Below, in pieces: positions 35,792-49,149 of a stretch of DNA of 64,000 bases; the first letter of the stretch is position 1; each line of letters starts with the position of its first letter. The stretch lies in NCBI GenBank assembly GCA_963836185.1, contig CAWIIQ010000001.1, positions 1,760,001-1,824,000 of the forward strand, given 5' to 3'. Origin of the DNA: Candidatus Krumholzibacteriia bacterium (lineage in GTDB: Bacteria > Krumholzibacteriota > Krumholzibacteriia > Krumholzibacteriales > Krumholzibacteriaceae). Position numbers and translations under genes: made by a program. The notes beneath the pieces were generated by a model that searched no databases, was not told the origin of the DNA, and saw only the letters and a program-made list of their open reading frames with translations.

Positions 35792-36742
35792 TTGATCGAA
35801 GTACGGGAACTCTCAAAGAATTACGGGATTACGAAGGCGGTCGAAAGGCTGTCCTTCACCGTGGAAAGAGGCGAGGTCCTCGGCTTTCTGGGCCCGAACG
35901 GAGCAGGCAAGACGACCACGATGAAGATGCTTACATGTTATCTCCCCCCCTCCTCCGGAACTGCCAGTATATTCGGTTTTGACATACTTGAGGATTCGAT
36001 GGAGGTCCGGGAAAGGATCGGGTACCTGCCCGAGAAGAATCCCCTCTATACCGACATGGACGTATACTCATTTCTCGAGCTCGCTGCACGCCTTAAAGGA
36101 GTCGGTAGAGATTCCATCACCGGCTCAGTCGCGGAAGTTGTCGAAAGATGCGGCCTGGGGGATGTCAGCCGCAGAAGGATCGGAAATCTCTCCAAGGGTT
36201 TTCAGCAGAGAGTTGGAATAGCACAGGCCATCGTAAACGATCCTGAGCTTCTAATCCTTGATGAGCCCACGATAGGCCTCGATCCGCGGCAGATAATCGA
36301 CATCAGGTCCCTTATAAAAGATCTCGGCAAAGACAGGACTGTCATACTCAGCTCCCATATCCTGCCGGAAGTCAGCCAGGTCTGCGACAGGATAATAATA
36401 ATCAATAACGGACTTCTCGTTGCCGTCGATACACCCGACAACCTTCGCGACAGGCTGAAGAGATCTTCGATGACAAGGGTACGTATCGCGGGATCTGCCG
36501 TTGCAGCAGATGCGGAGAAGATCATCTCATCGATCGGGGGAGCGCGTGTGATCCGAAGCGAAGAGAAGGGCGGGGACGGATCGTCTCTTCTCACCGTGGA
36601 ATCGGCCACTGACTCGGATATCCGAAATCTGCTCGCCCGGAAACTGGTCGAGGCGGATATCCCTCTCCTTGAGATCTACAGCGAGGAACTCTCCCTCGAA
36701 GACATCTTCATCAGGCTGGTAACCGAAGAGGGAGATGCATGA
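35792..36742 (+). CDS. ABC transporter ATP-binding protein (GldA-like)
   Basis: GPNGAGKT, LSKGFQQR, LDEPTIGLDP, SSHIL, SLEDIF. Confidence 0.92.
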   Translation: MIEVRELSKNYGITKAVERLSFTVERGEVLGFLGPNGAGKTTTMKMLTCYLPPSSGTASIFGFDILEDSMEVRERIGYLPEKNPLYTDMDVYSFLELAARLKGVGRDSITGSVAEVVERCGLGDVSRRRIGNLSKGFQQRVGIAQAIVNDPELLILDEPTIGLDPRQIIDIRSLIKDLGKDRTVILSSHILPEVSQVCDRIIIINNGLLVAVDTPDNLRDRLKRSSMTRVRIAGSAVAADAEKIISSIGGARVIRSEEKGGDGSSLLTVESATDSDIRNLLARKLVEADIPLLEIYSEELSLEDIFIRLVTEEGDA

Positions 36743-37509
36743 ACAAGGCCTCAGCGATATACGGAAAGGAATTGAGATACTTCTTCCAGTCGATTACGGC
36801 CTACGTCGTCATCTCGATATTCTTAGTGATATCCGGGTACTTTTTCTTCAGTATGTTCCGGTATTATAATCTTCTATCCCTTCAATCGATTCAGAGTGGC
36901 TTCGCCAGTGGCGGACTGAACCTGATCGATGGAGTGATGCGGCCCCTTCTCGGCAATATCAGCATCATAATCCTCCTTCTACTCCCCCTGCTTACGATGA
37001 GGTTGATGGCCGAGGAGAAGAAGCAGGGTACGTTCGAACTCCTCTCCACCTATCCAGTTTCAGATATCGAAACGGTATGGGGCAAGTTCCTGGCAACGAT
37101 GACAGTCTACGCGCTGATGATCGGCTGCACCCTTCTCTACCCCGCGATGCTTTTCTATTACGCCGAGCCGGAGATCGTGCCGATCGTAACCGGATATCTC
37201 GGCCTTCTTCTTATGGGCGCGGCCTTTATCGCTATGGGGACTTTCTTCTCCTCACTCACCGACAACCAGATCATCGCAGGTGTCGCTACATTCGGAGCGT
37301 CCCTCTTCTTTCTCGTGATAGGCTGGGCCGCCCCATTCGTCGGCCCCAGATTCGCGGCGGTGCTGGCGCAGATCTCGATACTCTATCATTTCGAATCGTT
37401 CTCCAAGGGAGTGATCGAGACGAGCGACCTGACATACTATATATTCCTGACCACTTTCTTTCTTTTCCTGACTGTGAGATCTCTCGAATCGACGAGGTGG
37501 AAAAGCTGA
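36739..37509 (+). CDS. ABC-2 permease (GldF-like)
   Basis: KELRYFF.S..AY, TMRLMAEEKKQGTFELL, six TM segments. Confidence 0.9.
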   Translation: MNKASAIYGKELRYFFQSITAYVVISIFLVISGYFFFSMFRYYNLLSLQSIQSGFASGGLNLIDGVMRPLLGNISIIILLLLPLLTMRLMAEEKKQGTFELLSTYPVSDIETVWGKFLATMTVYALMIGCTLLYPAMLFYYAEPEIVPIVTGYLGLLLMGAAFIAMGTFFSSLTDNQIIAGVATFGASLFFLVIGWAAPFVGPRFAAVLAQISILYHFESFSKGVIETSDLTYYIFLTTFFLFLTVRSLESTRWKS

Positions 37510-39059
37510 TGGGCAGTTTGATCTACAGAATACTCGGTGCTGCCGGCCTTCTTCTTGTCGTGTTCGGGGGAATCCTCTACGGGATATTCTACACGAGTGG
37601 ATGGCCGGCCATCATCCCCCTTGTGCTCGGCATGGCGATGACGATCGCCGCTTTCGCGGGAGCGTACCGTTCCGAGAGCTCGGAGGGCTCGAGACGGACA
37701 GCGCGTTTCGGGATAGGTGCCGGACTTTCGGTCGTGGCGGTCGCCGCTATACTGATCCTCCTTCAGACCCTGGCATACCGGCACACTTCTTCGATCGACC
37801 TCACCAGCAACAGCCGATTCTCGCTCTCCCCTCAGACGGCCAAGGTCCTCGGATCTCTTGAGGCTTCCGTGCATCTAACAGCTTTTTACAAGGAGACGAA
37901 CCCTGACAGGGTCGTCCTGATGGACCTGCTGGAAAGTTTCTCGGCCCGCAATCCTGCTGTGACCTATGTATTCATCGACCCCGACAGGGAACCCCTGATA
38001 GCCCGCAATTACGGGATCACCCGTTCAGGTATAGTCTTTGTGGAGTCCGGGCAGATGCGCGAGGAACTGGAGGCTGCGAACGAAGAGCGACTGACCAATG
38101 CCATCGCGAGAGTGACCTCCGGCGGCATAAAGACGATCTGTTTTCTAACGGGCCACGGGGAAAAATCCGTGCATGAGAGCGGCCCCCACGGGATCAGTTC
38201 CTTTCTGGAGGCTTTACGGGCTGAAAATTTCGAAGTACGCGACATTGTCGCTCTCGGTGCGGAACGGATTCCAGCTGACTGCGACATCCTTATCCTCGCC
38301 GGGCCCGAGAAGGACATAATCAAACACGAACAGAATGTGATCCTCGACTACCTTACTGAAGGCGGACGGGCGCTCTTTCTCCTCGATCCGATGACCGAAA
38401 TAGCGAACATCGAGGGTATACTCGCCGCTTACGGGATACTCCTCGGAAACGATGTTATCGTCGACAGGTACGGAAAACTCCTCGCCGGCAACTTTCTGAC
38501 TCCGGTTGTTAACAATTACGGCGTGCATCCTATAACGGATGGATTCAGACATTTCTCGTTCTTCCCGCAGGCGCGATCGGTAACAGCGATGAAGGACCCT
38601 CCTGCCACACTCGATGTAACAGTCATCGGCAGAACGAATGAGGGCGCTTATTCCGAAACCGACATGGCGACACTGCTGGAAGGACAGACCCAGTTCGAGC
38701 CCTCGGAGGATATAAAAGGGCCTGTTGATATAGCAGTCGCCGCGGTCATGCTCTCGCAAGCCGATTCATCTTCCAGAGCCCCGGAATCCCGCATCGTCGG
38801 TTTCGGAGACAGTGATTTCGCGGGAAACTCCAACCTGCGCCTCTCGGGAAACAGGGACCTCCTTCTCAATACAGTTCACTGGCTTGCCGAATCAGAGGAC
38901 ATGATCTCTATCAGGCCGGCCGACGACCTTCAGCAGCCAGTCCTGCTGACAGCTACCCAGGGGCGTTTCGTCTTCTGGATCCCTGTCGTCGCCCTGCCCG
39001 CACTCATACTGCTCGCCGGAGCGGTGATCCTCACATGGAGAAAACGAACCGTCCGGTAG
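37509..39059 (+). CDS. GldG-family ABC auxiliary protein
   Basis: IDLT....FSLS, FLTGHGE, GDSDF, NRDLLLNTVHWL, C-terminal TM. True start is at the TGATG overlap at 37509. Confidence 0.88.
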   Translation: MGSLIYRILGAAGLLLVVFGGILYGIFYTSGWPAIIPLVLGMAMTIAAFAGAYRSESSEGSRRTARFGIGAGLSVVAVAAILILLQTLAYRHTSSIDLTSNSRFSLSPQTAKVLGSLEASVHLTAFYKETNPDRVVLMDLLESFSARNPAVTYVFIDPDREPLIARNYGITRSGIVFVESGQMREELEAANEERLTNAIARVTSGGIKTICFLTGHGEKSVHESGPHGISSFLEALRAENFEVRDIVALGAERIPADCDILILAGPEKDIIKHEQNVILDYLTEGGRALFLLDPMTEIANIEGILAAYGILLGNDVIVDRYGKLLAGNFLTPVVNNYGVHPITDGFRHFSFFPQARSVTAMKDPPATLDVTVIGRTNEGAYSETDMATLLEGQTQFEPSEDIKGPVDIAVAAVMLSQADSSSRAPESRIVGFGDSDFAGNSNLRLSGNRDLLLNTVHWLAESEDMISIRPADDLQQPVLLTATQGRFVFWIPVVALPALILLAGAVILTWRKRTVR

Positions 39060-39072
39060 TGGAGGCTGATCT

Positions 39073-40389
39073 ATGAAGGCCCGCAGCCTCATTATCCTGG
39101 CAGTGATCCTCGTGATCGTAGCGGGATATTTATTCATAATCGACGAGAAGAGGCGCAGTGACTCCGCCGAGGAGGAGAAGTCATCTCGAAAACTAGTGCC
39201 CTATGGCCCTCTTGATATCGATCTCGTTTCATTTATCAACCCGTATGGCGAGACGATCATCTGGAAGAGGGATGGCGACGGTTGGCTCATAACATTTCCC
39301 GTAACAGATATCGGCGAGAAAAGTACCATCGACATGTTTCTCGGCCAGATAGCCCCTGGACAGAAGCTCGAGGAATTCACCGGCGTTGATGATCTTTCAA
39401 AGTACGGACTTGCCCCTCCATACGCTATCGTCATTCTCGAGAGCGAGCGCTATGGGAGGATAGATACTCTTTACATCGGCGATAAGACACAGACGAGTTT
39501 CAGATCGTATGTGTCTCTGGGCTCGTCACGCAGCGTGGCAGTGACCAGGGAACTTGCTCACAACGTCATGCAGAAGAGACTCTTTCACATCAGGGACAAG
39601 AATTTCCTCTCCCCCGCGGAGAGGGACATCGTCGAATTCGCCATCATATCCGGAAACGACACTCTTCCCTTTCAGCGTTGGGGAGATGCATGGAAAGTCG
39701 CCGGCTCGACATTGACCGTGGACCGCGACGTGATCGAGCCATGGGTCATGCGTCTGAGAAGCGCCCTGGTCTACGAATTCGCCGCCGAGGATCTGGCGGA
39801 TACGATTTCATTCGGCATCGGTGCTCCTGGCAGGTCTGTCATCCTGAAAACATCTCAGGGTGACTCCACCAGGATATCCTTCGGCCGAGTTTCGGAATCT
39901 CTCGTTCCTGTCGTGAAATCGGGCCGAGAAAAAATAATGATGATCGAATCAACTTTTCTCGACGCATTTTACTGGACCGACGACCGCCTCATCGTGATGA
40001 GTCTTTCACTCGTCAGGCCGGGAACAGTCGCCGCCCTCCAATGGGAGACTCCAGATTCGGTTACTTCCTGGAAAAAGGAGAACGATATCTGGATGACCGC
40101 GGGGGACGATCCCTCGCCGGTCGATCAGGAAGCGCTGAAGTATCTACTGATGTACATTCGTTCGGTTGTTTACGAGAATATCGTCACAGACCGTGAAAAA
40201 GTCTCATCGGTCAGGCCCGATGTAATGATCACACTTGGCGACGCTTCAGGGGAAGTGCTGGACATCATCTCACTTTACCGCTTCGATGACGGAACAGCCG
40301 GAGGCATCTCTATATCTGGCGGTAATGCCGGCCGCATCAACGAGGGTGTCCTGGCGGAGATATACAGGGCCCGCTCAGCGATACGCTGA
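39073..40389 (+). CDS. DUF4340 domain protein
   Basis: N-terminal anchor and repeated W...P...(D)L..YGL..P modules; this is the usual fourth gene after gldAFG-like genes. Confidence 0.75.
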   Translation: MKARSLIILAVILVIVAGYLFIIDEKRRSDSAEEEKSSRKLVPYGPLDIDLVSFINPYGETIIWKRDGDGWLITFPVTDIGEKSTIDMFLGQIAPGQKLEEFTGVDDLSKYGLAPPYAIVILESERYGRIDTLYIGDKTQTSFRSYVSLGSSRSVAVTRELAHNVMQKRLFHIRDKNFLSPAERDIVEFAIISGNDTLPFQRWGDAWKVAGSTLTVDRDVIEPWVMRLRSALVYEFAAEDLADTISFGIGAPGRSVILKTSQGDSTRISFGRVSESLVPVVKSGREKIMMIESTFLDAFYWTDDRLIVMSLSLVRPGTVAALQWETPDSVTSWKKENDIWMTAGDDPSPVDQEALKYLLMYIRSVVYENIVTDREKVSSVRPDVMITLGDASGEVLDIISLYRFDDGTAGGISISGGNAGRINEGVLAEIYRARSAIR

Positions 40390-40436: not shown

Positions 40437-41567
40437 ATGATGAACGCTTCCCGCAGAAATATGTCCAGAAGGGATTTTCTCGCAACTACAGCAGGATTGC
40501 TGGCTGCCGGAACCGTGGCCGGAAGCCCGATCCTCGCCGCTGATGGATCTCCGCGAAAAGCTGAGTTCTGGGAAATACTGAATAAGGGGAAAGTGAGATG
40601 TAACCTGTGCCCTCACGGCTGCACAATCGCCGATGGAAGACGCGGAGCCTGCAGGGTCAGGGAAAATCGCGGAGGCGAACTCTTTACTCTCTCGTGGGGC
40701 AGACCATGTGCTCTTCACGCCGATCCTATAGAGAAAAAGCCTTTCTATCATTTTCTGCCGGGTTCGACCTCCCTTTCGCTTTCTACTATCGGATGTAACA
40801 TGAAGTGCCTTTTCTGCCAGAACTGGCAGATCTCCCAGTCCTCCCCCGAGGACCTGGAAACAGAGATCGTTAATCCCGGATTCTTCGCGAAAAAAGCTGT
40901 CATGGAGGGGGCCTCATCTATTGCCTTCACCTATGGTGAACCTGTCGTCTTTATAGAATACGCAATGGATATCGCTGAGGCTGCAAAAGCATCCGGGGTC
41001 AGAAGCGTTGTGGTCTCCAACGGCTATATCGAACAGAAGCCGCTTGCCGCTCTCTGTTCTTCCATCGATGCTGTAAAAATCGATCTTAAGGCTTTCGAGG
41101 ATGGATACTACCGCAAGATATGTGGAGCAAAACTCGACCCAGTCCTTCGTTCTCTCGTCGAGATCCGCTCGAGTGGTGTCTGGCTCGAGATCGTCTACTT
41201 GATGGTACCGACGCTTAATGACGATGCGGATACGATAGGCAGGATGGCTGCCTGGATCCACTCCGAACTTGGACCGGACGTTCCCCTGCACTTCTCGAGA
41301 TTTCACCCAGCTTACCGTCTGCCTGACCTCCCTCCCACACCCGTCTCTTCTCTTGAGACGGCAAGAGAGAGGTGCCTGGACGCGGGATTGAATTACGTTT
41401 ATATCGGTAACGTTGCAGGTCACGCGGCAGACTCGACATATTGCCGTTCATGTTCCGAAAAGATCATCGAAAGGTCCGGATACAGGATACTTTCTATCAA
41501 GATGGAAGAAGACAAGTGCCTGTTCTGCGGTACGGCACAACCTGGTATATGGAGGACAGACTCATGA
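40437..41567 (+). CDS. amrS: AmmeMemoRadiSam system radical SAM enzyme with a Tat signal peptide
   Basis: SRRDFL plus h-region; CNLCPHGC...GACRVR; DPIEKKPFYHF; CNMKCLFCQNWQISQ (CX3CX2C); FTYGEP; YVYIGNV; C-terminal CxxC...CxxC. Confidence 0.93.
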   Translation: MMNASRRNMSRRDFLATTAGLLAAGTVAGSPILAADGSPRKAEFWEILNKGKVRCNLCPHGCTIADGRRGACRVRENRGGELFTLSWGRPCALHADPIEKKPFYHFLPGSTSLSLSTIGCNMKCLFCQNWQISQSSPEDLETEIVNPGFFAKKAVMEGASSIAFTYGEPVVFIEYAMDIAEAAKASGVRSVVVSNGYIEQKPLAALCSSIDAVKIDLKAFEDGYYRKICGAKLDPVLRSLVEIRSSGVWLEIVYLMVPTLNDDADTIGRMAAWIHSELGPDVPLHFSRFHPAYRLPDLPPTPVSSLETARERCLDAGLNYVYIGNVAGHAADSTYCRSCSEKIIERSGYRILSIKMEEDKCLFCGTAQPGIWRTDS

Positions 41568-43099
41568 CGAGACGCGCGGCGGCCTCAGGGATCGTCCTCT
41601 TTATGACTCTCGCCGCGGCCGGCTTTTGCGATGCCGGCCTGAAAGGAAGCGACATGGAACAGTCGATCCGGAAACCGGCAGTCGCCGGACAGTTCTACAC
41701 CTCTGATCCGGACGCACTTCGCCTGGAAATCGAGACTCTGATAAATGACGCTGTGCCACCTGACATATCAGGCGATATTCTCGCTCTTATCTGTCCTCAC
41801 GCAGGATATGTCTACTCCGGGCATGTGGCGGCATCCGGATACGCTCTTCTCAAAGAGGGACAGTTCGAGACTGTCGTCGTCATCTCTCCCTGTCATGTCG
41901 AGTATTTCCGCTTCGCCTCGATCTACGATGGCGACGCATACGAGACTCCACTAGGCCTCGTGAAGATCGACAAGGAACTCTCCAGGGAGATCGCCTCCTT
42001 GAGTGACTTCGTACAGATCGGGCCTGACGGCCACGGTACAGGTCCGCGCGGACGGGGCGAACACTCCCTTGAGGTTCAAATACCCTTCCTGCAGGTCGCC
42101 CTTGGGGATTTCAGGATCGTACCGATAGTAATGGGAGATCAGTCCGCCGACGTGGTCGATGGACTTGGAGCGGCTCTGGCCGGGGCCCTCGAGGGCCGCA
42201 ACATACTGATCGTAGCAAGTACCGATCTCTCACATTTTCATGATGATGGAACAGCAAGAAAACTGGACGGTGAATTCCTCAAGCAGCTCGAAGCTTTCGA
42301 CTCCGATGGTCTGAAGAGATCTATCGCATCGGGAAAGACCGAAGCCTGCGGAGGTGGCCCGTCAGCGGCAGCAATGATCGCGTCCGCAAACCTGGGCGGT
42401 CAAGGATGCACGGTTCTCAAATACGCGAATTCCGGCGACATATCAGGTGACCACGGAAATGTCGTGGGTTATGTATCGGCAGTAATAACCGGAAATCGTG
42501 CGGCGGTAGAATCCTGCATCCACGGTGGAAGCATCGGAGATGACGTCGACCGGGAAACGAGGCTGTTCCTCCTGCGTTACGCCAGATCCGTTATCCGGGA
42601 GACTCTCGACATGGATACTGAGGAGATCGAGAGACCCGATTCACCGATCCTCGGAGAGAAACGGGGAGGCTTTGTCACTCTGAAGAAGAACGGCAGACTC
42701 AGGGGCTGCATAGGTTATATCGACGCTGTCAAGCCACTCTACGAGACTATAGGCGAGATGGCATATTCGGCGGCCTTCAGCGATTACAGGTTTGAGCCTG
42801 TTTCCAGGGAAGAAGTCGATGAGCTTTCGATAGAGATATCAGTACTCAGCCCGGTGAGGGAGACCGAAGATCCATCCGAAATCGAGGTCGGCAGACATGG
42901 AATAATCATTTCGGCAGTGGGAAAAAGAGGGCTTCTGCTTCCACAGGTAGCAGTCGAATACGGCTGGGACAGGGAGACCTTCCTCGATCAGACATGCGTG
43001 AAGGCTGGCCTGCCTCGCGGATCCTGGAAGAAATCAGGGACCACGATAGAGATATTCAGTGCCGAGATCTTCTCCGAGGAGGAGTTGGGACTGCGGTAG
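41564..43099 (+). CDS. amrB: AmmeMemoRadiSam protein B (Memo) - protein A (AMMECR1) fusion with an N-terminal signal peptide
   Basis: MTRRAAASGIVLFMTLAAAG; RKPAVAGQFY, PHAGYVYSG, EHSLEVQIPFLQ, STDLSHF; then FVTL...LRGCIG and GLLLPQV. ATGA-coupled to amrS. Confidence 0.92.
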   Translation: MTRRAAASGIVLFMTLAAAGFCDAGLKGSDMEQSIRKPAVAGQFYTSDPDALRLEIETLINDAVPPDISGDILALICPHAGYVYSGHVAASGYALLKEGQFETVVVISPCHVEYFRFASIYDGDAYETPLGLVKIDKELSREIASLSDFVQIGPDGHGTGPRGRGEHSLEVQIPFLQVALGDFRIVPIVMGDQSADVVDGLGAALAGALEGRNILIVASTDLSHFHDDGTARKLDGEFLKQLEAFDSDGLKRSIASGKTEACGGGPSAAAMIASANLGGQGCTVLKYANSGDISGDHGNVVGYVSAVITGNRAAVESCIHGGSIGDDVDRETRLFLLRYARSVIRETLDMDTEEIERPDSPILGEKRGGFVTLKKNGRLRGCIGYIDAVKPLYETIGEMAYSAAFSDYRFEPVSREEVDELSIEISVLSPVRETEDPSEIEVGRHGIIISAVGKRGLLLPQVAVEYGWDRETFLDQTCVKAGLPRGSWKKSGTTIEIFSAEIFSEEELGLR

Positions 43100-44498
43100 A
43101 TATTTGCACATCCAGGTATCTATAAAACTCCAAAGGCTTCGAAAGCAGACCTGAGTGTAGATTTTCAGGGTTCTTTTGTCCGCATTCAGGATAGAATACA
43201 TCGGCCTTTCTACGCTGCGTATATTGCTTTGTTACATATTGTTCTGCGGCTTCTTTAATGTACTGCTCCATGTGCTTCTTCCCGTAGGCCCTCTCGGCCT
43301 CGAGCCGGTTGTGCTTCCCGCACAGCAGCCTGAGATTCTCCGGTGAGTCGTCCCCGCCCCTGGCAAAGGGGACCTTGTGGTCTATCTGCAGGTCCCACGT
43401 GGACCCGCATCTCCTGCCACCGGGGGAGAGAAAGGAACATCGCCCCTTGTCCCTGGCGTATACCTCGTCACGGACCTTCCGGGGGATATGACGGGATTGA
43501 TCAGGGACCTTGTCTGACCTGGGGTCCTGTATATTCGATTTTCCTGCAGCCGTCCCCGATGATCCCTTCTCGGCCCTCTTCTCCCGCTTCTCTTTTCTCC
43601 TGATCCTCCCCTCAGGGCTTTGTCTTTCGATGTACTCGTCCATCAGAAGAGAGAAGAGCTCGCCCAGCTCAAGATGCCTGTGATACTTCGAGGAGAGAAG
43701 AGAACGGACCCTCTCGACCTTTCGCATGAAGTCCGGATCCGCTCCGAACGTGACCTTCAGCCTCTCCTCGAGAACCACTGTCTGCGCGGCGAAGGGCCTG
43801 CTGCCAGTATCAGGGCTGGCTGCCGGCCCTTCGCCGCTGCCAGCTCTGCTCCCCTTCGAAGTGGCAGGATCTTTACCGCCACCGGTGGCGGTGGAGAATT
43901 TACCACCCCCGTCTAATGTGTTGTCTCCGAGGCTGTTGCCATCGTTCGTCTTGTCTCCGTCACTCATGCAAGCGCCATCTCGGACCTCGAGCAGAGTTTT
44001 TACATATACCGGGGTGACCCTGTCTCGGATAGCGCTCTTAGGCCTGCGGCTGCTGACAAGAAGCTCGACCTCTCTCTTCGAGGCTCCCTCTATCCGGCAA
44101 AGAAGATCAGAGACATTCTCCGGTGTCATGATCCTGGTGATCATCGCGAGGTTGGTCATGCTGACCTTCCCGCAGGAGAGCGAGCGGTAGACAGCCGGGT
44201 AGTCCCTGATGCACCTGGCGATACTTATCCTCCTGCCGGCCGTGGACTCGGAGTATCCGAGACGCTCTGTGCAGAACTCATAGAGAGAGCTGAAGCCGAG
44301 AGGAAGATAGAGCTTTCTTCTGTCTATCTCGATCAGGTGGACGAGGATAGAAAGCACGGTCTTTCTCTCAGTCTCAGAGAGCTTACGTATACCGGATAGA
44401 AGGGCCCTGTTTGAGAGAGACTTCAGGGCTTTTGCTCCAGGGATGGTCTTTGTGGATCTACTGCTGGAACGGATCGAGCTCTTCGTCGTCCTCATCAT
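43056..44498 (-). CDS. HNH endonuclease with a DUF222-like helical N-terminal domain
   Basis: N-terminus HLIEIDRRKLYLPLGFSSLYEFCTERLGYSE..AGRRI; C-terminus RDKGRCSF...RCGS...LQIDHKVPFARGG....ENLRLLCGKHN. SD GGAGG lies 5 nt before the ATG at 44498. Confidence 0.88.
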   Translation of the reverse strand: MMRTTKSSIRSSSRSTKTIPGAKALKSLSNRALLSGIRKLSETERKTVLSILVHLIEIDRRKLYLPLGFSSLYEFCTERLGYSESTAGRRISIARCIRDYPAVYRSLSCGKVSMTNLAMITRIMTPENVSDLLCRIEGASKREVELLVSSRRPKSAIRDRVTPVYVKTLLEVRDGACMSDGDKTNDGNSLGDNTLDGGGKFSTATGGGKDPATSKGSRAGSGEGPAASPDTGSRPFAAQTVVLEERLKVTFGADPDFMRKVERVRSLLSSKYHRHLELGELFSLLMDEYIERQSPEGRIRRKEKREKRAEKGSSGTAAGKSNIQDPRSDKVPDQSRHIPRKVRDEVYARDKGRCSFLSPGGRRCGSTWDLQIDHKVPFARGGDDSPENLRLLCGKHNRLEAERAYGKKHMEQYIKEAAEQYVTKQYTQRRKADVFYPECGQKNPENLHSGLLSKPLEFYRYLDVQISTAVPTPPRRRSRH

Positions 44499-44562
44499 CG
44501 TCACCTCCGGGTGAGATCAGGCTATTTATCTCTGCCCCCCATTTGCCCTCTCCATCGGGGAC

Positions 44563-44571
44563 ATTATAACA
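44563..44571 (-). promoter_or_regulatory. Extended -10 promoter of the HNH gene
   Basis: Minus strand TG-T-TATAAT, about 65 nt upstream of the ATG. Confidence 0.65.
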
Positions 44572-44574
44572 CGG

Positions 44575-44740
44575 ACTTCTGGCGGCAAAACAGATGGCCC
44601 GTGGCGCCTCGCCGGGGGCCGGGATAAGCCGGATGCCGGAATCTTCGAGAGAGGCGAAGAGAGGGGCGCTGAGGTCCGCCTGGCGGCGTAATCTACGGCG
44701 GGCACGCAGGTTGGGGAATCGGGCCCGAAAAAGCCGTCAA
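44575..44740. ncRNA. Candidate structured non-coding element upstream of the HNH gene
   Basis: GC-rich with no credible ORF. Stems GGCCC..GGCG/CGCC..GGGCC (44596-44620), TCTTCG/CGAAGA (44642-44660), CCGC/GCGG (44676-44686), CGTA/TACG, and palindrome TCGGGCCCGA (44719-44728). Confidence 0.35.
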
Positions 44741-44880
44741 GGATTATTTTTGGTTTTTGGGGGATATTATTGATTATTTTGAGGATTACTTTTGGGTTTT
44801 CCGACGACTATTCTGGAGTTATCTGGAGTGCTTTTGGGGTTTCGGGATTGCTTTGGGATCTTCGCGGGATATTTCGAGGA
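44741..44880. repeat. Degenerate tandem repeat with a 42-bp period and a ~10.5-bp sub-period
   Basis: GGATTATTTTTGGTTTTT (44741), GGATTACTTTTGGGTTTT (44783), GGAGTGCTTTTGGGGTTT (44825); strong G/T strand skew. Confidence 0.7.
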
Positions 44881-44915
44881 GGAGCAGGTTTGAATCCGGG
44901 AAGATAAGGATGGAT

Positions 44916-47147
44916 TCAGTGAACCGGTGTTATTTTCCGTACAAGCAGTAGTGCCGACACTAAGTGGGTCACTGCTGCAACGGCAGCTGTCCAGTCGAGT
45001 CCTGAGAGCGGTATCAGAAATGTGCCTGCAAGCAGTCCCCCCGCGCATGCTCCGAACATGTCCCATGAGTAAAACAGAGCCGGGGGCGCCCCCCTCTTTT
45101 CGGGCCATGCGATCTCCACGACTGTTCGGTAATAAGCCCCGGTGAGCAATCCTCCCGCCAGGGACAGGAACATGAATCCAGCCATCCCAGTCAGATGCCC
45201 GGACAGCTCCGCAGCCTGCAGGCGAAGCCATACAGGGACGAGAACTGCGCTTATTCCCATAAGAACATGGAAGACGACAAGGTTCGATTTCCCTCTCTCC
45301 TGCAGCTTTTTCGCGAAATACGCACCCAGCGCGGCACCCGCCATGAAAAGTGCCGTCAACATCACGAGTGAATAATAGAGAATCCCCGTGAAAGTCTGGA
45401 ACGCGAACATCAATGAGATCTGTACAGTCATGCTGCACGATCCGGTAAGAAATACGGCAGATTTTGCGGCTGATCCACCTCCCGAAAAGGATGCAAGCAG
45501 TATCGCCGCTGTCAGGAAAGCAATCGGGAACACCCATTGAGGCAGCTGGAGCATGCCTTTAAAAAAGTCCGCCGAAGAAGAGCCCGCTCTGCGGCCGTGA
45601 AGGATCAGCTCACGAGTAACGAGAACAGGATGCAGATCGGTGTTGATCATATCCGGCGCAGATTTCAGCACAGAAGCGAGATGGGCCTTTCTCTCCCCGG
45701 ACAACCTCCACACCAGCTCATCGAGCGACAGATAGTGCCCGCCGAGCCTTCTCTCCCGCAGCCTCGCCAGTATGGATCCCGTATTGACCGGGCTGTCAGA
45801 GGCAATAAAGAACACCGTTCCCCCAGGCACCATATCGACATACTCGAATGAAGCAGCCAGGGTCTGCCGGATCGTCCCCAGGACGGCCGCGTTTCCCTCC
45901 GAGATATAGTTTTCCGAGGAACTGTGTCTCAGCGTCAGTATTCCTCCAGGAGCGAGGCTTCGTCGGGCCGCTTCGAAGAATTCCCGTGTATAGTACCTGT
46001 TCCATCTCAAATTGACCGGTTCAGGAACATTCACGATGATCACGTCATAGAGACCCGATCCGCGCAGCATGAACCTCCCGTCGCCGGTCAGATTTTGCAC
46101 TTCTTCGGATATATCAATTATTCTTACCCTGTCTGCAAGGATCCCGTATCCCGTACGCCACAGGCAGTCGTCTAAAGCTTCAGAAATGTTGCCATCGAGT
46201 TCTATCCAGTCGACAGACTCTACGCCAGGATGACTGAGCGCCTCTTCTGCTCCCCCTCCATGCCCGCCTCCGATAAGAAGCACCGCCGAAGGACGACTGT
46301 GAGCAAGCAGGGGAATATGAATCCTTTCTCCTGCTGCCTCCGCATCCGGATGACTGAACAACCGGGCTCCCCCGGAGAAGACCGATACGATCTCCCTGTT
46401 CCTTGTAACGCATAGTTCAGAGTACCGTGAAGGTACGATCTCCATTACCTCGTACCCGCTGAATACGAGCGACATGCTGGCTCTGTCGATAAACGGGGCT
46501 GCCATGTAACCGATAGCCGCGACAAGGAGGACGATCACCCATCCGAGCCTTCTTCCCTTCTCCGATGTAAACAGAAAGACCATCGTTACGATCGCAGCCA
46601 CGGCGAATCCCGCCGCAAGCTGCGTAAGGTATGCGAATAAAAGAAGAGAGAGAAGCACACCTCCCGCTATCGATCCAGCGGCCTCCAGGATATAAGCCGA
46701 AGCTATGCCCGTGGAAATTCTCTTTCCCGGTTCCTTCGTCACCGCGCTAGCGAAATTGTAAACCGCACCGTACAACAGGCCGAACGGCGCAGTAGAGATC
46801 AGGATCAATCCAGCCGCGGGAAGTATATCCGGCAGAGAGCCGGGAGGATCGACGAGCAGGCTCCTGGCCACACGGATAAACAGGAGGACAATCGGGACTG
46901 ATAGTGCAATTGACACCGAGAGACCAGCAAATGTTTTTTCGACCGGGACAGATCGAGGCCGGAGAAGTCTTCCGCCGATGATGCCGCCGGCTCCGATCCA
47001 GAACAGCCATGAGGCGAGCGCGAGCCCCAGGATCAGCTCGGTGCCGGTTATGATCCCGAGGATCTCCCGTATAAACAGAGTCTGCGCACAAACGGCGCAT
47101 GCTCCGAGAGCGATGATCCTGGCTCGTCTGGATTTTCTGTAATTCAT
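44916..47147 (-). CDS. Polytopic membrane protein with a central spermidine-synthase-like (class I SAM-binding) domain; catalytic motifs altered
   Basis: TM block, then VLLIGGGHGG...WIELDG, GDGR, YDVIIVNVPEP, YYTREFF, L.PGG, then a second TM block. Confidence 0.82.
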   Translation of the reverse strand: MNYRKSRRARIIALGACAVCAQTLFIREILGIITGTELILGLALASWLFWIGAGGIIGGRLLRPRSVPVEKTFAGLSVSIALSVPIVLLFIRVARSLLVDPPGSLPDILPAAGLILISTAPFGLLYGAVYNFASAVTKEPGKRISTGIASAYILEAAGSIAGGVLLSLLLFAYLTQLAAGFAVAAIVTMVFLFTSEKGRRLGWVIVLLVAAIGYMAAPFIDRASMSLVFSGYEVMEIVPSRYSELCVTRNREIVSVFSGGARLFSHPDAEAAGERIHIPLLAHSRPSAVLLIGGGHGGGAEEALSHPGVESVDWIELDGNISEALDDCLWRTGYGILADRVRIIDISEEVQNLTGDGRFMLRGSGLYDVIIVNVPEPVNLRWNRYYTREFFEAARRSLAPGGILTLRHSSSENYISEGNAAVLGTIRQTLAASFEYVDMVPGGTVFFIASDSPVNTGSILARLRERRLGGHYLSLDELVWRLSGERKAHLASVLKSAPDMINTDLHPVLVTRELILHGRRAGSSSADFFKGMLQLPQWVFPIAFLTAAILLASFSGGGSAAKSAVFLTGSCSMTVQISLMFAFQTFTGILYYSLVMLTALFMAGAALGAYFAKKLQERGKSNLVVFHVLMGISAVLVPVWLRLQAAELSGHLTGMAGFMFLSLAGGLLTGAYYRTVVEIAWPEKRGAPPALFYSWDMFGACAGGLLAGTFLIPLSGLDWTAAVAAVTHLVSALLLVRKITPVH

Positions 47148-47530
47148 GTCAGGGAATGCTGATCGCCGTAGTAGTCTTCCTCGAACACCTGTTTAAAATC
47201 AAAGACATCGTCGAAATCCTCGATCGAGTCTTTCTCGCTGTTCTCAAGGAGCCCCGCGTCGAGCAGGCCGAAGACGATGTTACCGATATCCCGCGTAGTA
47301 TATATACCCCAATGGTTGAGCACCTGCTTCGCCATCGGGCCGAATTGCCTTGTGGCGATCTCTCTCAATCCATCGAGAAGTTCTTCCCCTGATATATGGT
47401 CAGTGGCATGAAGCATCTCGATGGTAGACTCGACACCGGAAAGTACAAATCGCCAGGCGTACTTCTCGTACCTGCCGTCTGATCCGGCTGCCACATCGAC
47501 CTCCGGCCACCTGTCGGAATCGTGTCTCAA
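47144..47530 (-). CDS. Minf_1886-family (Verruco/Plancto-type) small protein
   Basis: HISGEELLDG, QFGPMAKQVLNHWGI, DIGNIVF, DSIEDF. Confidence 0.8.
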   Translation of the reverse strand: MRHDSDRWPEVDVAAGSDGRYEKYAWRFVLSGVESTIEMLHATDHISGEELLDGLREIATRQFGPMAKQVLNHWGIYTTRDIGNIVFGLLDAGLLENSEKDSIEDFDDVFDFKQVFEEDYYGDQHSLT

Positions 47531-49149
47531 TCTGCCATCCTCTCCCTGTGCCCGAAAGTGCTGGCCGGTCCCCTCCCGGATCCCCTCTTGAGGATCGTGC
47601 CCTGTGCCCGCGAAGGATCGCTGTCGGGCCAGTCCATATTGTAATGCAGTCCCCGCGACTCCTTTCGCAGCGAGGCCGATTCTACCACGAGCGAGCTTAC
47701 CAGTGCGATATTCCTCAATTCCACCATATCACTGGAGATCCCGTACTCATCGAAGAGCATCCTTACTGTCTGCCCTATCTGCCCGATCCTCTGCCGGGCC
47801 AGATGCAGGCGCTCGTCTGACCTGACGATTCCGACGTAATCCCACATCACTCTCCTGACCAGGTCCCAGTCGTGATCCAGTATTACAGTCTCGAGGACCT
47901 TCGGATCAGCAGCTACGGGGATATCATCTTCGACCGGCATGTATTCGTCTTTCCCGGTCCTCCCCGCCAGCAATGCTGCGCAGCGTGCGGCGCCAACGAG
48001 TGATTCGAGTAGCGAATTGCTCGCGAGCCGGTTGGCTCCATGGCAACCGGAACAGGCCACTTCACCGATTGCGTAGAGGCCTTCCAGTGCTGTCGTCCCG
48101 TCCAGTGCAGCCTTCACTCCTCCCACCATGTAATGAGCGGCGGGTACCACGGGTATCGGTTCGGAGCTGATATCTATCCCGAACTCAAGGCATGTCTCGT
48201 AGACAAAGGGGAATCGCTGCCTGAGCCATTCACCGGGCCGGTGAGAAATATCAAGGAGAACGTACTTGTCCCCACTATGCTTCATCTCACTGTCAATCGC
48301 CCTCGCCACTATATCTCGCGACGCAAGCTCACCACGAGGATCGTATTCCTTCATGAACTCTCTGCCATCGAGGGAACGGAGCACCGCACCCTCTCCCCTG
48401 AGCGCCTCTGAGATCAAACGGGATTTGGCATCCGAATGGTAGAGACAGGTCGGATGGAACTGGACGAACTCGAGATTCTCTATCTCTGCTCCGGCCGCAT
48501 ATGCCATCGCTATACCGTCGCCGGTAGCGACATCTGGATTCGACGTGTAAAGGTAGATCTTTCCGGCCCCGCCCGTAGCGAGGACAGTGTTCGAGGCGAG
48601 ATATGTATGAATACCCCCGTCGCCGAGTAACGCATGACAGCCTCGCACCCTGCCCCCTCCATCGACGACAAGATCGACCGCGAGCCTGTCTTCTTCCAGT
48701 TCAATGCGGGGATTCGACGCACAAGCCCTGAGCAGAGTCTCTTCAAGTTCCCTGCCGGTCAGATCGCCGTAGTGAACGATTCTCGGGCGAGTATGCCCTC
48801 CCTCACGGCCGAGCCTGAGGTTCCCGCTGCTGTCGTCCCTCGAGAACCTGACGCCGAGATCGATCAGTTCCTCGATCCTGTCCGGCCCCTCGCGGACCAT
48901 GATCTCAACCGCTTCCCTGTCACAGAGACCGCGCCCGGCCTCGATAGTATCTTCTATATGCAGCTCAAACGAATCCCTCACCCTGTCCATTACGGATGCT
49001 ATCCCGCCCTGGGCATATCTTGTATTCGACTGTTCGGCCTTTTTTTTTGTAAGTACCCGCACATCAGCATATTCCGAGGCCTTCAGGGCAAAGAAAAGCC
49101 CCGCGGCACCGCTTCCGATCACAAGTATGTCACTTCTCACCAGTTCCAT
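47527..49149 (-). CDS. nadB: L-aspartate oxidase
   Basis: IGSGAAG, YAQGGIA, REGGH, QFHPT, SEALRGEG, HGANRLASNSLLE, ESRGLHY. Confidence 0.95.
   Translation of the reverse strand: MELVRSDILVIGSGAAGLFFALKASEYADVRVLTKKKAEQSNTRYAQGGIASVMDRVRDSFELHIEDTIEAGRGLCDREAVEIMVREGPDRIEELIDLGVRFSRDDSSGNLRLGREGGHTRPRIVHYGDLTGRELEETLLRACASNPRIELEEDRLAVDLVVDGGGRVRGCHALLGDGGIHTYLASNTVLATGGAGKIYLYTSNPDVATGDGIAMAYAAGAEIENLEFVQFHPTCLYHSDAKSRLISEALRGEGAVLRSLDGREFMKEYDPRGELASRDIVARAIDSEMKHSGDKYVLLDISHRPGEWLRQRFPFVYETCLEFGIDISSEPIPVVPAAHYMVGGVKAALDGTTALEGLYAIGEVACSGCHGANRLASNSLLESLVGAARCAALLAGRTGKDEYMPVEDDIPVAADPKVLETVILDHDWDLVRRVMWDYVGIVRSDERLHLARQRIGQIGQTVRMLFDEYGISSDMVELRNIALVSSLVVESASLRKESRGLHYNMDWPDSDPSRAQGTILKRGSGRGPASTFGHRERMAD

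Follow-up and report, generated by a model that had tools for sequence, protein, structure and literature searches.

The locus

The window analysed here is a stretch of 64,000 nucleotides from a Candidatus Krumholzibacteriia bacterium (assembly GCA_963836185.1, contig CAWIIQ010000001.1, positions 1,760,001 to 1,824,000). It encodes, on the minus strand, a membrane protein with a spermidine synthase (SpdS)-like domain, P0001, for which we propose a role in the export of S-adenosylmethionine (SAM). The gene lies close to genes of the AmmeMemoRadiSam system, which encode the radical-SAM enzyme AmrS and a fusion of AmrB (Memo) and AmrA (AMMECR1). An earlier note on this DNA had described P0001 as a membrane 'spermidine synthase' lacking both key aspartates, and as a possible partner of periplasmic Amr proteins. 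The features are listed below, with residue numbers referring to P0001.

44916..47147, minus strand: P0001, a split major facilitator superfamily (MFS) and spermidine-synthase-like membrane protein; ATG start, 743 amino acids, 14 predicted transmembrane (TM) helices, model pLDDT (predicted local distance difference test) 92.5
46563..47147, minus strand: N-terminal MFS half, TM1-6, about residues 1-195; near-invariant Q22, R27, E28, E37, W47, R92, Y152 and E155
45543..46484, minus strand: domain of SpdS fold (residues 222-535) with a predicted location outside the cytoplasm; SAM-binding G293/G294/G298, E316, D318 and D356 present, amine-acceptor residues gone
46254..46271, minus strand: glycine loop GGGHGG, residues 293-298; acidic residue missing across the family
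46017..46046, minus strand: catalytic strand DVIIVNVPEP, residues 368-377; Asn373 at the position of the catalytic Asp
45897..45917, minus strand: loop 411-417, predicted to insert into the active-site mouth of AmrS
44919..45479, minus strand: C-terminal MFS half, TM9-14, residues 557-743; homologous to the N-half (hhalign 98.2%, E 3e-14), near-invariant Q584, Y693 and D696
40437..41567, plus strand: radical-SAM enzyme AmrS, predicted to bind P0001 and bearing a twin-arginine signal; TIGR04337 395 bits (cut-off 220)
41564..43099, plus strand: fusion of AmrB (Memo) and AmrA (AMMECR1), hydrophobic signal at the N-terminus; ATGA overlap with the amrS stop used to infer the start

The open reading frame (ORF) at 44916-47147 and the motifs GGGHGG and DVIIVNVPEP are present as claimed earlier (ORF list and translation), and two TM blocks do flank the SpdS-like domain (AlphaFold model, helix limits). 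The nearest named relatives in the homologue search are Krumholzibacteria. The gene order is amrS (+), amrB-amrA (+), an HNH gene (-) and the P0001 gene (-). The amr products score above the cut-offs of the TIGR04335/04336/04337 models (AmrS 395 against 220, AmrB 268.9 against 26 and AmrA 186.1 against 99 bits).

Aminopropyltransferase residues are lost and SAM-site residues are kept

Conservation was assessed in two sets of sequences: the 120 listed of 182 homologues of P0001, and a diverse set of 83 locus-derived sequences of less than 60% identity, taken from 149 by dropping near-duplicates and rows with more than 150 gaps. Alignment to Thermus thermophilus SpeE places His296 opposite the acidic glycine-loop residue and Asn373 opposite the catalytic Asp. 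At the glycine-loop position none of the 120 listed homologues has Asp or Glu; the common residues are Val (36), Leu (30), Ala (17), Pro (10) and Ile (9). His occurs there only in P0001 itself, and with this frequency of 1/120 a special catalytic role of His296 was dropped. Position 373 is Asn in 90, Ser in 14 and Asp in 11 of the listed homologues, and Asn in 35, Gly in 17, Asp in 12, Ser in 6 and Ala in 5 sequences of the diverse set. Asn373 had also been considered as part of an NPPY-type methyltransferase motif; Asn, Ser or Asp in 115/120 listed homologues would agree with this, but the Gly and Ala residues of the diverse set do not, and the idea was rejected.

The acid that faces the distal amine (D176 type) is retained, as E376 in P0001 and as Asp or Glu in 103/120 listed and 58/83 diverse homologues. 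The earlier statement that both key aspartates are lost is thus correct for the glycine-loop and catalytic residues, whereas the second acid of the DxxDP motif is mostly kept. Both tyrosines of the amine pocket are gone (position 272, Ala in 50/83; position 443, Glu, Asp, Gly, Ser or Ala), as is the Gln associated with decarboxylated SAM (dcSAM); these positions were mapped by eye in the diverse set. The two tyrosines presumably correspond to human Y79 and Y241.

The residues of the SAM site are kept: E316 in 76, D318 in 77 and D356 in 82 of the 83 diverse sequences, together with the glycines. Glu is found at position 273 in 77/83. In the same set positions 373, 376, 412 and 443 are variable, and 273, 274 and 277 are fairly conserved. 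The Pfam model PF01564 matches residues 277-413 above its cut-off (55 bits), whereas all SpeE equivalog models are missed by a wide margin (TIGR00417 64.8 against 249.55, PRK00811 75.3 against 260, PRK03612 111.5 against 472 bits). The score with NF037959 was 23.9 bits, below the cut-off of 40.

In Junker et al. (PMC3725402), replacement of the glycine-loop Asp alone (D103I) inactivates SPDS and gives weak methyl transfer, and the SpdS residue equivalent to position 273 contacts the amino group of dcSAM. Batth et al. (PMC10349129) use the glycine-loop position to tell the fungal N-terminal histidine methyltransferase NHMT from SpdS. With four aminopropyltransferase residues lost family-wide, including the one whose loss by itself abolishes SPDS activity, and with the SAM residues kept, the alignments support the earlier view that P0001 is not an aminopropyltransferase, and make SAM binding by the SpdS-like domain plausible.

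Membrane fold and topology

In the AlphaFold model of P0001 (56-row alignment, pLDDT 92.5, predicted template modelling score 0.92) the soluble domain is preceded by seven helices and followed by seven more. When it was compared with 48,161 PDB representatives, the best matches of residues 1-743 were MFS proteins, VMAT2 (Z 28.4, root-mean-square deviation (rmsd) 3.5, 342 residues aligned) and SotB (Z 28.0, rmsd 3.8, 350 aligned); nucleoside transporters were among the MFS matches as well. The SpdS-like insert matched T. thermophilus SpeE with Z 25.9 (rmsd 3.1, 271 aligned). Foldseek by itself returned SpdS matches only, and a sequence match to Pfam MFS_1 was obtained for one of 56 family members.

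Lys and Arg are richer in the predicted inside loops in all 117 full-length homologues (mean 21.6 versus 9.0; in P0001 25 versus 5, with helix limits from the model), and this positive-inside bias places the SpdS-like domain outside. The topology and structure prediction recommended in the earlier note thus yields a full MFS fold split by an outward-predicted SpdS-like domain, and P0001 is predicted to be a complete MFS-fold transporter carrying that domain in its central loop. Polar residues of the TM helices are near-invariant in the 83 sequences (R27 83, E28 82, E37 83, E155 80, D696 81), and Q22, R27, E28, E37, R92, Y152, E155, Q584, Y693 and D696 are among the most conserved positions (75-83 of 83). 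Such conservation would be expected if the membrane part were more than an anchor.

Co-occurrence with exported AmrS

Genomic linkage was examined in 79 related loci, from the best 80 of 583 matches. An amrS gene lies inside the fetched DNA of 55/79 related loci, in six arrangements, and in 37 of the 48 loci with at least 4 kb on both sides; amrB/A was found in 41/79. No match to the P0001 family was found within about 6 kb of 21 amrS loci of the housekeeping type (0/21). The linkage of the family to amr genes is far above chance.

Phylogenetic profiling was carried out in three phyla: the own phylum of P0001 (61 genomes), that of G062 (121) and that of G063 (81). The genomes are incomplete and kin are non-independent, and the score thresholds for the export clade of AmrS were set afterwards, at score gaps. 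The P0001 family is present in about 45% of these 263 genomes. In the own phylum the family occurs in 28/61 and export-clade AmrS in 27/61 genomes, with 26 having both; AmrS was thus found in 26/28 family-positive and 1/33 family-negative genomes, and the three exceptions are all at contig ends. The phylum of G062 gave 50/121 and 47 with 45 shared (45/50 of the positives versus 2/71 of the negatives), that of G063 43/81 and 45 with 43 shared (43/43 versus 2/38). The earlier note had proposed this profiling against signal-bearing AmrS, and the two do coincide in all three phyla.

Signals for twin-arginine translocation (Tat) are a regular property of these enzymes: Tat motifs are present in 27/27 own-phylum export-clade AmrS, and a twin-arginine pattern in 44/50 anchored AmrS of related loci. 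AmrB partners have signal-like or lipoprotein-like N-termini. A check of 23 of 24 loci without amrS found an export-clade AmrS at another site in 20 genomes, of which 16 gave a pattern match to a Tat motif; one was ambiguous and two had none. Housekeeping AmrS is still present in most family-negative genomes (28/32 in the own phylum), and a signal-less housekeeping copy also exists in the genome of P0001; this gene (L081) lies about 5 kb from tatC, probably incidentally. In a tree of 95 AmrS the 15 signal-less copies, plus the Sec-labelled L323, stand apart from the signal-bearing and split forms.

Two variations of AmrS were observed. In some Omnitrophota AmrS is split into a signal-less core flanked by tiny ORFs, in which a Tat signal and/or a membrane anchor precedes the N-terminal strand (L326:14125-15327, L329:8783-10116, L330:4427-5796, L325:11117-12293, L039, L060). 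This arrangement suggests export by hitch-hiking, through strand complementation. In ten own-phylum Tat-AmrS (L132-L141) the zinc-ribbon motif is preceded by an additional CxxCH insert, which may be a c-type haem site.

Exchange of the radical-SAM partner

Five family-positive genomes in the phylum of G062 lack export-clade AmrS. In three of them (G150, G184, G114) the P0001-family gene is coupled stop-to-start to a Tat-bearing radical-SAM enzyme that is 25% identical to AmrS and scores 25.6 bits on TIGR04337 (cut-off 220); we call it PflX-like. All AmrA/AmrB found in these three genomes are signal-less. G105 has a lower-scoring, Tat-labelled AmrS. In G087 a signal-bearing AmrB-A was present, but no exported AmrS was found. 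All of the best 16 matches to the PflX-like enzyme have Tat-type motifs, and 15 of the 16 genomes concerned encode the P0001 family; no such motif was seen in the following 14 loci where they were read.

As the partner is either AmrS or its PflX-like replacement, the latter accompanied by signal-less AmrA/AmrB, the constant partner is an exported radical-SAM enzyme. An obligatory link to exported AmrA/AmrB was rejected (41/79 loci versus 55 for amrS, and none found in the three PflX-coupled genomes). The earlier proposal of a partnership with the periplasmic Amr proteins therefore holds for the exported radical-SAM enzyme, whereas AmrA/AmrB are not required. A constant radical-SAM partner is what a role in SAM supply predicts, and not what an Amr-specific tailoring step predicts. 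In some genomes AmrS paralogues stand in tandem, or AmrS is paired with Tat-PflX, and the membrane protein is encoded only once (L243, L244, L245, L178-L180); it would then serve several enzymes.

Predicted complex with AmrS

A complex of P0001 residues 222-535 with mature AmrS and SAM was predicted alongside three controls. It scored 0.82, the best control 0.00; at least 93% of contacts were the same from run to run, and the pLDDT of the partners was at least 92. The score mark was reached by 116/157 solved complexes and 2/215 mismatched pairs, a calibration that applies only roughly here (own alignments, SAM included). P0001 contributes loop 411-417 to the interface, together with residues 268-271 and 443 at the rim of what was the amine pocket. 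On AmrS the interface lies at the active-site mouth, made up of residues 128-132 directly behind CxxxCxxC, Tyr166 in the GGE-type motif, and strand positions 114/116. Thirteen AmrS residues specific for the export clade had been listed before the model was seen, and six of them fall in the 39-residue interface (1.6 expected, p 0.002, with kin non-independent). The model supports binding of the outer domain to AmrS at its active-site mouth. Together with the co-occurrence in three phyla, the predicted complex supports the partnership with an exported radical-SAM system that the earlier note had proposed.

Proposed function and alternatives

We propose, with a probability of roughly 0.55, that P0001 is a SAM exporter whose outward SAM-binding cap hands SAM to a docked exported radical-SAM enzyme. 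The sequences contribute the loss of the aminopropyltransferase residues with retention of the SAM residues, the signals on the partner enzymes and the tight co-occurrence. The predicted structure would add a 12-TM MFS core and two linker helices that put the SpdS-fold domain outside the membrane, and a dock on the active-site opening of AmrS, to which loop 411-417 and the entrance of the emptied amine-acceptor pocket contribute. Cytoplasmic SAM would cross the MFS pore, be caught by the cap and be passed to AmrS. More speculatively, 5'-deoxyadenosine or methionine may return the same way, and electrons might come from the often-linked Tat-DUF362 and membrane polyferredoxin. The wider statement, that a widespread class of MFS transporters exports SAM and through a repurposed SpdS domain both feeds and docks periplasmic radical-SAM enzymes of at least two families, we regard as slightly short of an even chance. 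The earlier note had left open whether the protein is a transporter, a sensor or a methyltransferase; the evidence favours a putative transporter with a docking cap.

Several points weigh against SAM export. Signal-bearing AmrS form essentially one clade, so that most of the co-occurrence is one inherited event, and the three PflX-coupled cases may be one further event. The thresholds for the AmrS clade were picked with the data already in view, and in Omnitrophota the scores are separated by a narrow gap (471 versus 460 bits). In the same phylum 19/29 AmrS (L295-L314, L322, L323) carry signals of Sec-like and not of Tat type, and just 4 of the 19 genomes concerned, which are incomplete, yielded a TatC; maturation of an iron-sulfur (Fe-S) enzyme after Sec export is not accounted for by any of the readings. 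The shared MFS fold reveals no substrate. The own clade of P0001 has Gly at 273, where 77/83 sequences have Glu. The dock over the acceptor pocket would equally suit a product of AmrS entering for methylation, and the sole characterised membrane-anchored SpdS-like protein found, NHMT (PMC10349129), is an enzyme with the same glycine-loop change.

These last points lead to an outward-facing SAM-dependent methyltransferase with its own SAM channel, NHMT-like. In this reading the MFS part would feed SAM to the fused domain, and the docked radical-SAM enzyme would be methylated on one of its residues or have its product methylated. We consider it unlikely but real, because the layout of NHMT is similar and the dock covers the acceptor pocket. 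According to PMC3725402 and PMC10349129, the glycine-loop Asp is replaced by a hydrophobic residue in putrescine N-methyltransferase (the change D103I confers methyl transfer) and in NHMT (I322), and NHMT, with seven TM helices and a SpdS-like domain, methylates secreted proteins from the endoplasmic reticulum (ER). The P0001 family shares the non-acidic loop residue and the SAM-binding Glu; the Pfam MTS model is weakly matched by 31/56 members and METTL13 was a weak PDB match (E 3e-4). On the other hand, no acceptor-site residue is invariant (373 is N35/G17/D12/S6/A5; 376, 412 and 443 vary), and the partner enzyme switches between AmrS and the PflX-like form. By eye, no residue is common to the N-termini of the mature exported enzymes, on which ground NHMT-type N-terminal methylation of AmrS was rejected. 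A soluble counterpart beside housekeeping amrS was likewise rejected, as no soluble family match was seen near the 21 loci; this is a weak point against a methyltransferase, the loci being unclustered. An importer or scaffold, which would anchor the exported enzyme and take up its product or inhibitory by-products (5'-deoxyadenosine, 5'-methylthioadenosine (MTA), methionine) while SAM arrives otherwise, seems quite unlikely. All genomic evidence and the docking fit it equally, nucleoside transporters are among the fold matches, and, from the SpdS chemistry in PMC3725402, E316 and D356 would bind 5'-deoxyadenosine or MTA too. However, the Glu kept at 273 in 77/83 sequences, at the position contacting the dcSAM amino group in SpdS, points to a ligand with an amino acid moiety, and the recurrent neighbours of family loci include no other conserved candidate SAM exporter.

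A very improbable alternative has the N-terminal signals serve as membrane anchors that are never cleaved, with the entire assembly on the cytoplasmic side. Radical-SAM enzymes are known as cytoplasmic, and the plain hydrophobic N-termini of the 19/29 Omnitrophota AmrS are hard to reconcile with Fe-S export; but the consensus twin-arginine motifs (27/27 and 44/50, as above), the positive-inside bias in 117/117 homologues, tatC beside the cluster and the signal-like or lipoprotein-like N-termini of AmrB partners all argue for export. We give hardly any credence to a divergent yet active polyamine aminopropyltransferase lying next to amr incidentally, although PF01564 is matched above its cut-off, the genome's two matches to the SpdS domain are both membrane-fused and it also has an AdoMetDC-family gene. 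The scores lie far below all SpeE equivalog cut-offs, the glycine-loop acid is missing in 120/120 listed homologues, the domain is predicted to face away from cytoplasmic dcSAM, and the AdoMetDC-family gene belongs to an unrelated GNAT/ATP-grasp/decarboxylase cluster. In that cluster (L082:5657-10016) AdoMetDC-family, GNAT, ATP-grasp and PLP-decarboxylase genes form one run, of a putative small-molecule or polyamine-like pathway.

Relation to known systems

P0001 resembles SpeE (PF01564, TIGR00417) in its SpdS fold (Z 25.9), glycine loop and adenosyl-binding Glu and Asp, and the membrane-fused PRK03612 matches residues 11-441, including the first membrane block. It differs from both by the absence of the glycine-loop Asp, the catalytic Asp, the Gln and both pocket Tyr, by a second MFS half after the domain, and by its score (111 versus 472 bits). 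NF037959, the fused MFS/spermidine synthase (listed as a subfamily model), likewise joins an MFS-type block to a SpdS-like domain; the homologue L208 passes it (78.8 versus 40) and the paralogue L080 aligns at 99.5% probability. In P0001, which scores 23.9 bits, the SpdS domain sits in the central MFS loop and not after the MFS, the Asp that closes strand 4 is retained in L080 but not conserved in the family, and the link to exported radical-SAM enzymes is specific to the P0001 family. L080 (L080:6422-9562) is a second MFS/SpdS fusion of this genome, 1046 amino acids long, with a full MFS followed by a SpdS-like domain and TPR; it passes NF037959.

NHMT (AN4663) has seven TM helices followed by a SpdS-like domain, its SAM-binding Glu is essential and it acts on secreted proteins at the ER, as described in PMC10349129. 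The non-acidic residue in GxG(D/E)G is shared with the P0001 family, and the layout of seven helices and a SpdS-like domain is similar. NHMT lacks the second membrane block and has shown methyltransferase activity, whereas for the P0001 family no conserved acceptor pocket or substrate terminus was found. An Atlas search with residues 1-228 of P0001 listed bacterial clusters only.

The window neighbours pass all three AmmeMemoRadiSam cut-offs, but this copy has export signals and a membrane partner. For the canonical system (AMMECR1 context) PMC2034487 proposes RNA base modification, a role difficult to reconcile with export of the copy described here.

Known SAM transporters are the mitochondrial carrier and the EamA/DMT-type carriers of Rickettsia, Chlamydia and the plant Golgi. 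They too deliver SAM to a compartment unable to make it, with folds other than an MFS/SpdS fusion, and we know of none with a fused SAM-binding cap or a docked enzyme. The plant Golgi transporter is also mentioned in PMC10349129. The literature searched, from which most subscription papers fell outside, contained no description of the P0001 family or of exported AmrS/PflX.

Neighbouring genes and the HNH insert

Two further features adjoin the P0001 gene.

43235..44941, minus strand: HNH mobile element of several copies (ORF 43056-44504), lying between the convergent genes; not a system component
47144..49149, minus strand: Minf_1886-family gene and nadB, upstream of and on the same strand as the P0001 gene, lineage-specific neighbours

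The earlier description of the neighbourhood holds in that the P0001 gene converges on amrS-amrB/A with the HNH gene between them; the HNH cassette itself is a mobile insert. It was discarded as a part of the system, being multicopy and missing between the convergent genes in 2/3 genus mates; in the third genus mate examined HNH fragments lie at both contig ends. The element is about 1.7 kb long, without an obvious transposase and with a weak IscB match. The same genome (G000) has four other near-full copies of 90-97% nucleotide identity plus shorter matches; sites outside the window are C1:1009561, C1:1219980, C2:60987, C3:151559 and C3:525415. One copy shares sequence up to window position 44941, so that the element overlaps the last codons and the stop of the P0001 gene.

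The P0001 gene ends an opposite-strand nadB-Minf_1886 run and is thus not co-transcribed with amr here. A link to these genes was rejected (nadB in 3/79, Minf_1886 in 2/79 related loci). DUF362, DUF6599 and a membrane polyferredoxin recur near family loci (one merged cluster in 39/95 loci); in this genome they lie elsewhere. All three are candidates for the supply of electrons. In Omnitrophota tatC was found within about 2-8 kb in 4/10 loci fetched, four of the ten having been picked for that reason. An ABC transporter/GldF/GldG/DUF4340 operon (window 35792-40389) lies directly upstream of amrS on the same strand, and is shared by close relatives only (3-4/79 loci). A promoter scan found 4 where 5.2 were expected. 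The AmrS fusion P0109 was left unused as Rosetta-stone evidence, since its junction resembles (by eye) a frameshift joining adjacent genes.

Implications

The P0001 family is a real, widespread variant of the MFS/SpdS fusion kind with a testable, potentially category-breaking role. Many proteins of anaerobes now annotated 'spermidine synthase' probably carry the wrong name. Radical-SAM enzymes depend on SAM and on low-potential electrons, both thought to be cytoplasmic; if the proposal is true, radical-SAM chemistry would run outside the membrane in anaerobic bacteria and in some archaea. With its dock predicted at residue level, a dedicated SAM exporter would make periplasmic radical chemistry directly testable, and MFS/SpdS fusions in general may couple cofactor export to extracytoplasmic SAM chemistry. 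The function of the AMMECR1/Memo/AmrS system, which has human relatives, would be narrowed, the exported copy being unlikely to act on RNA.

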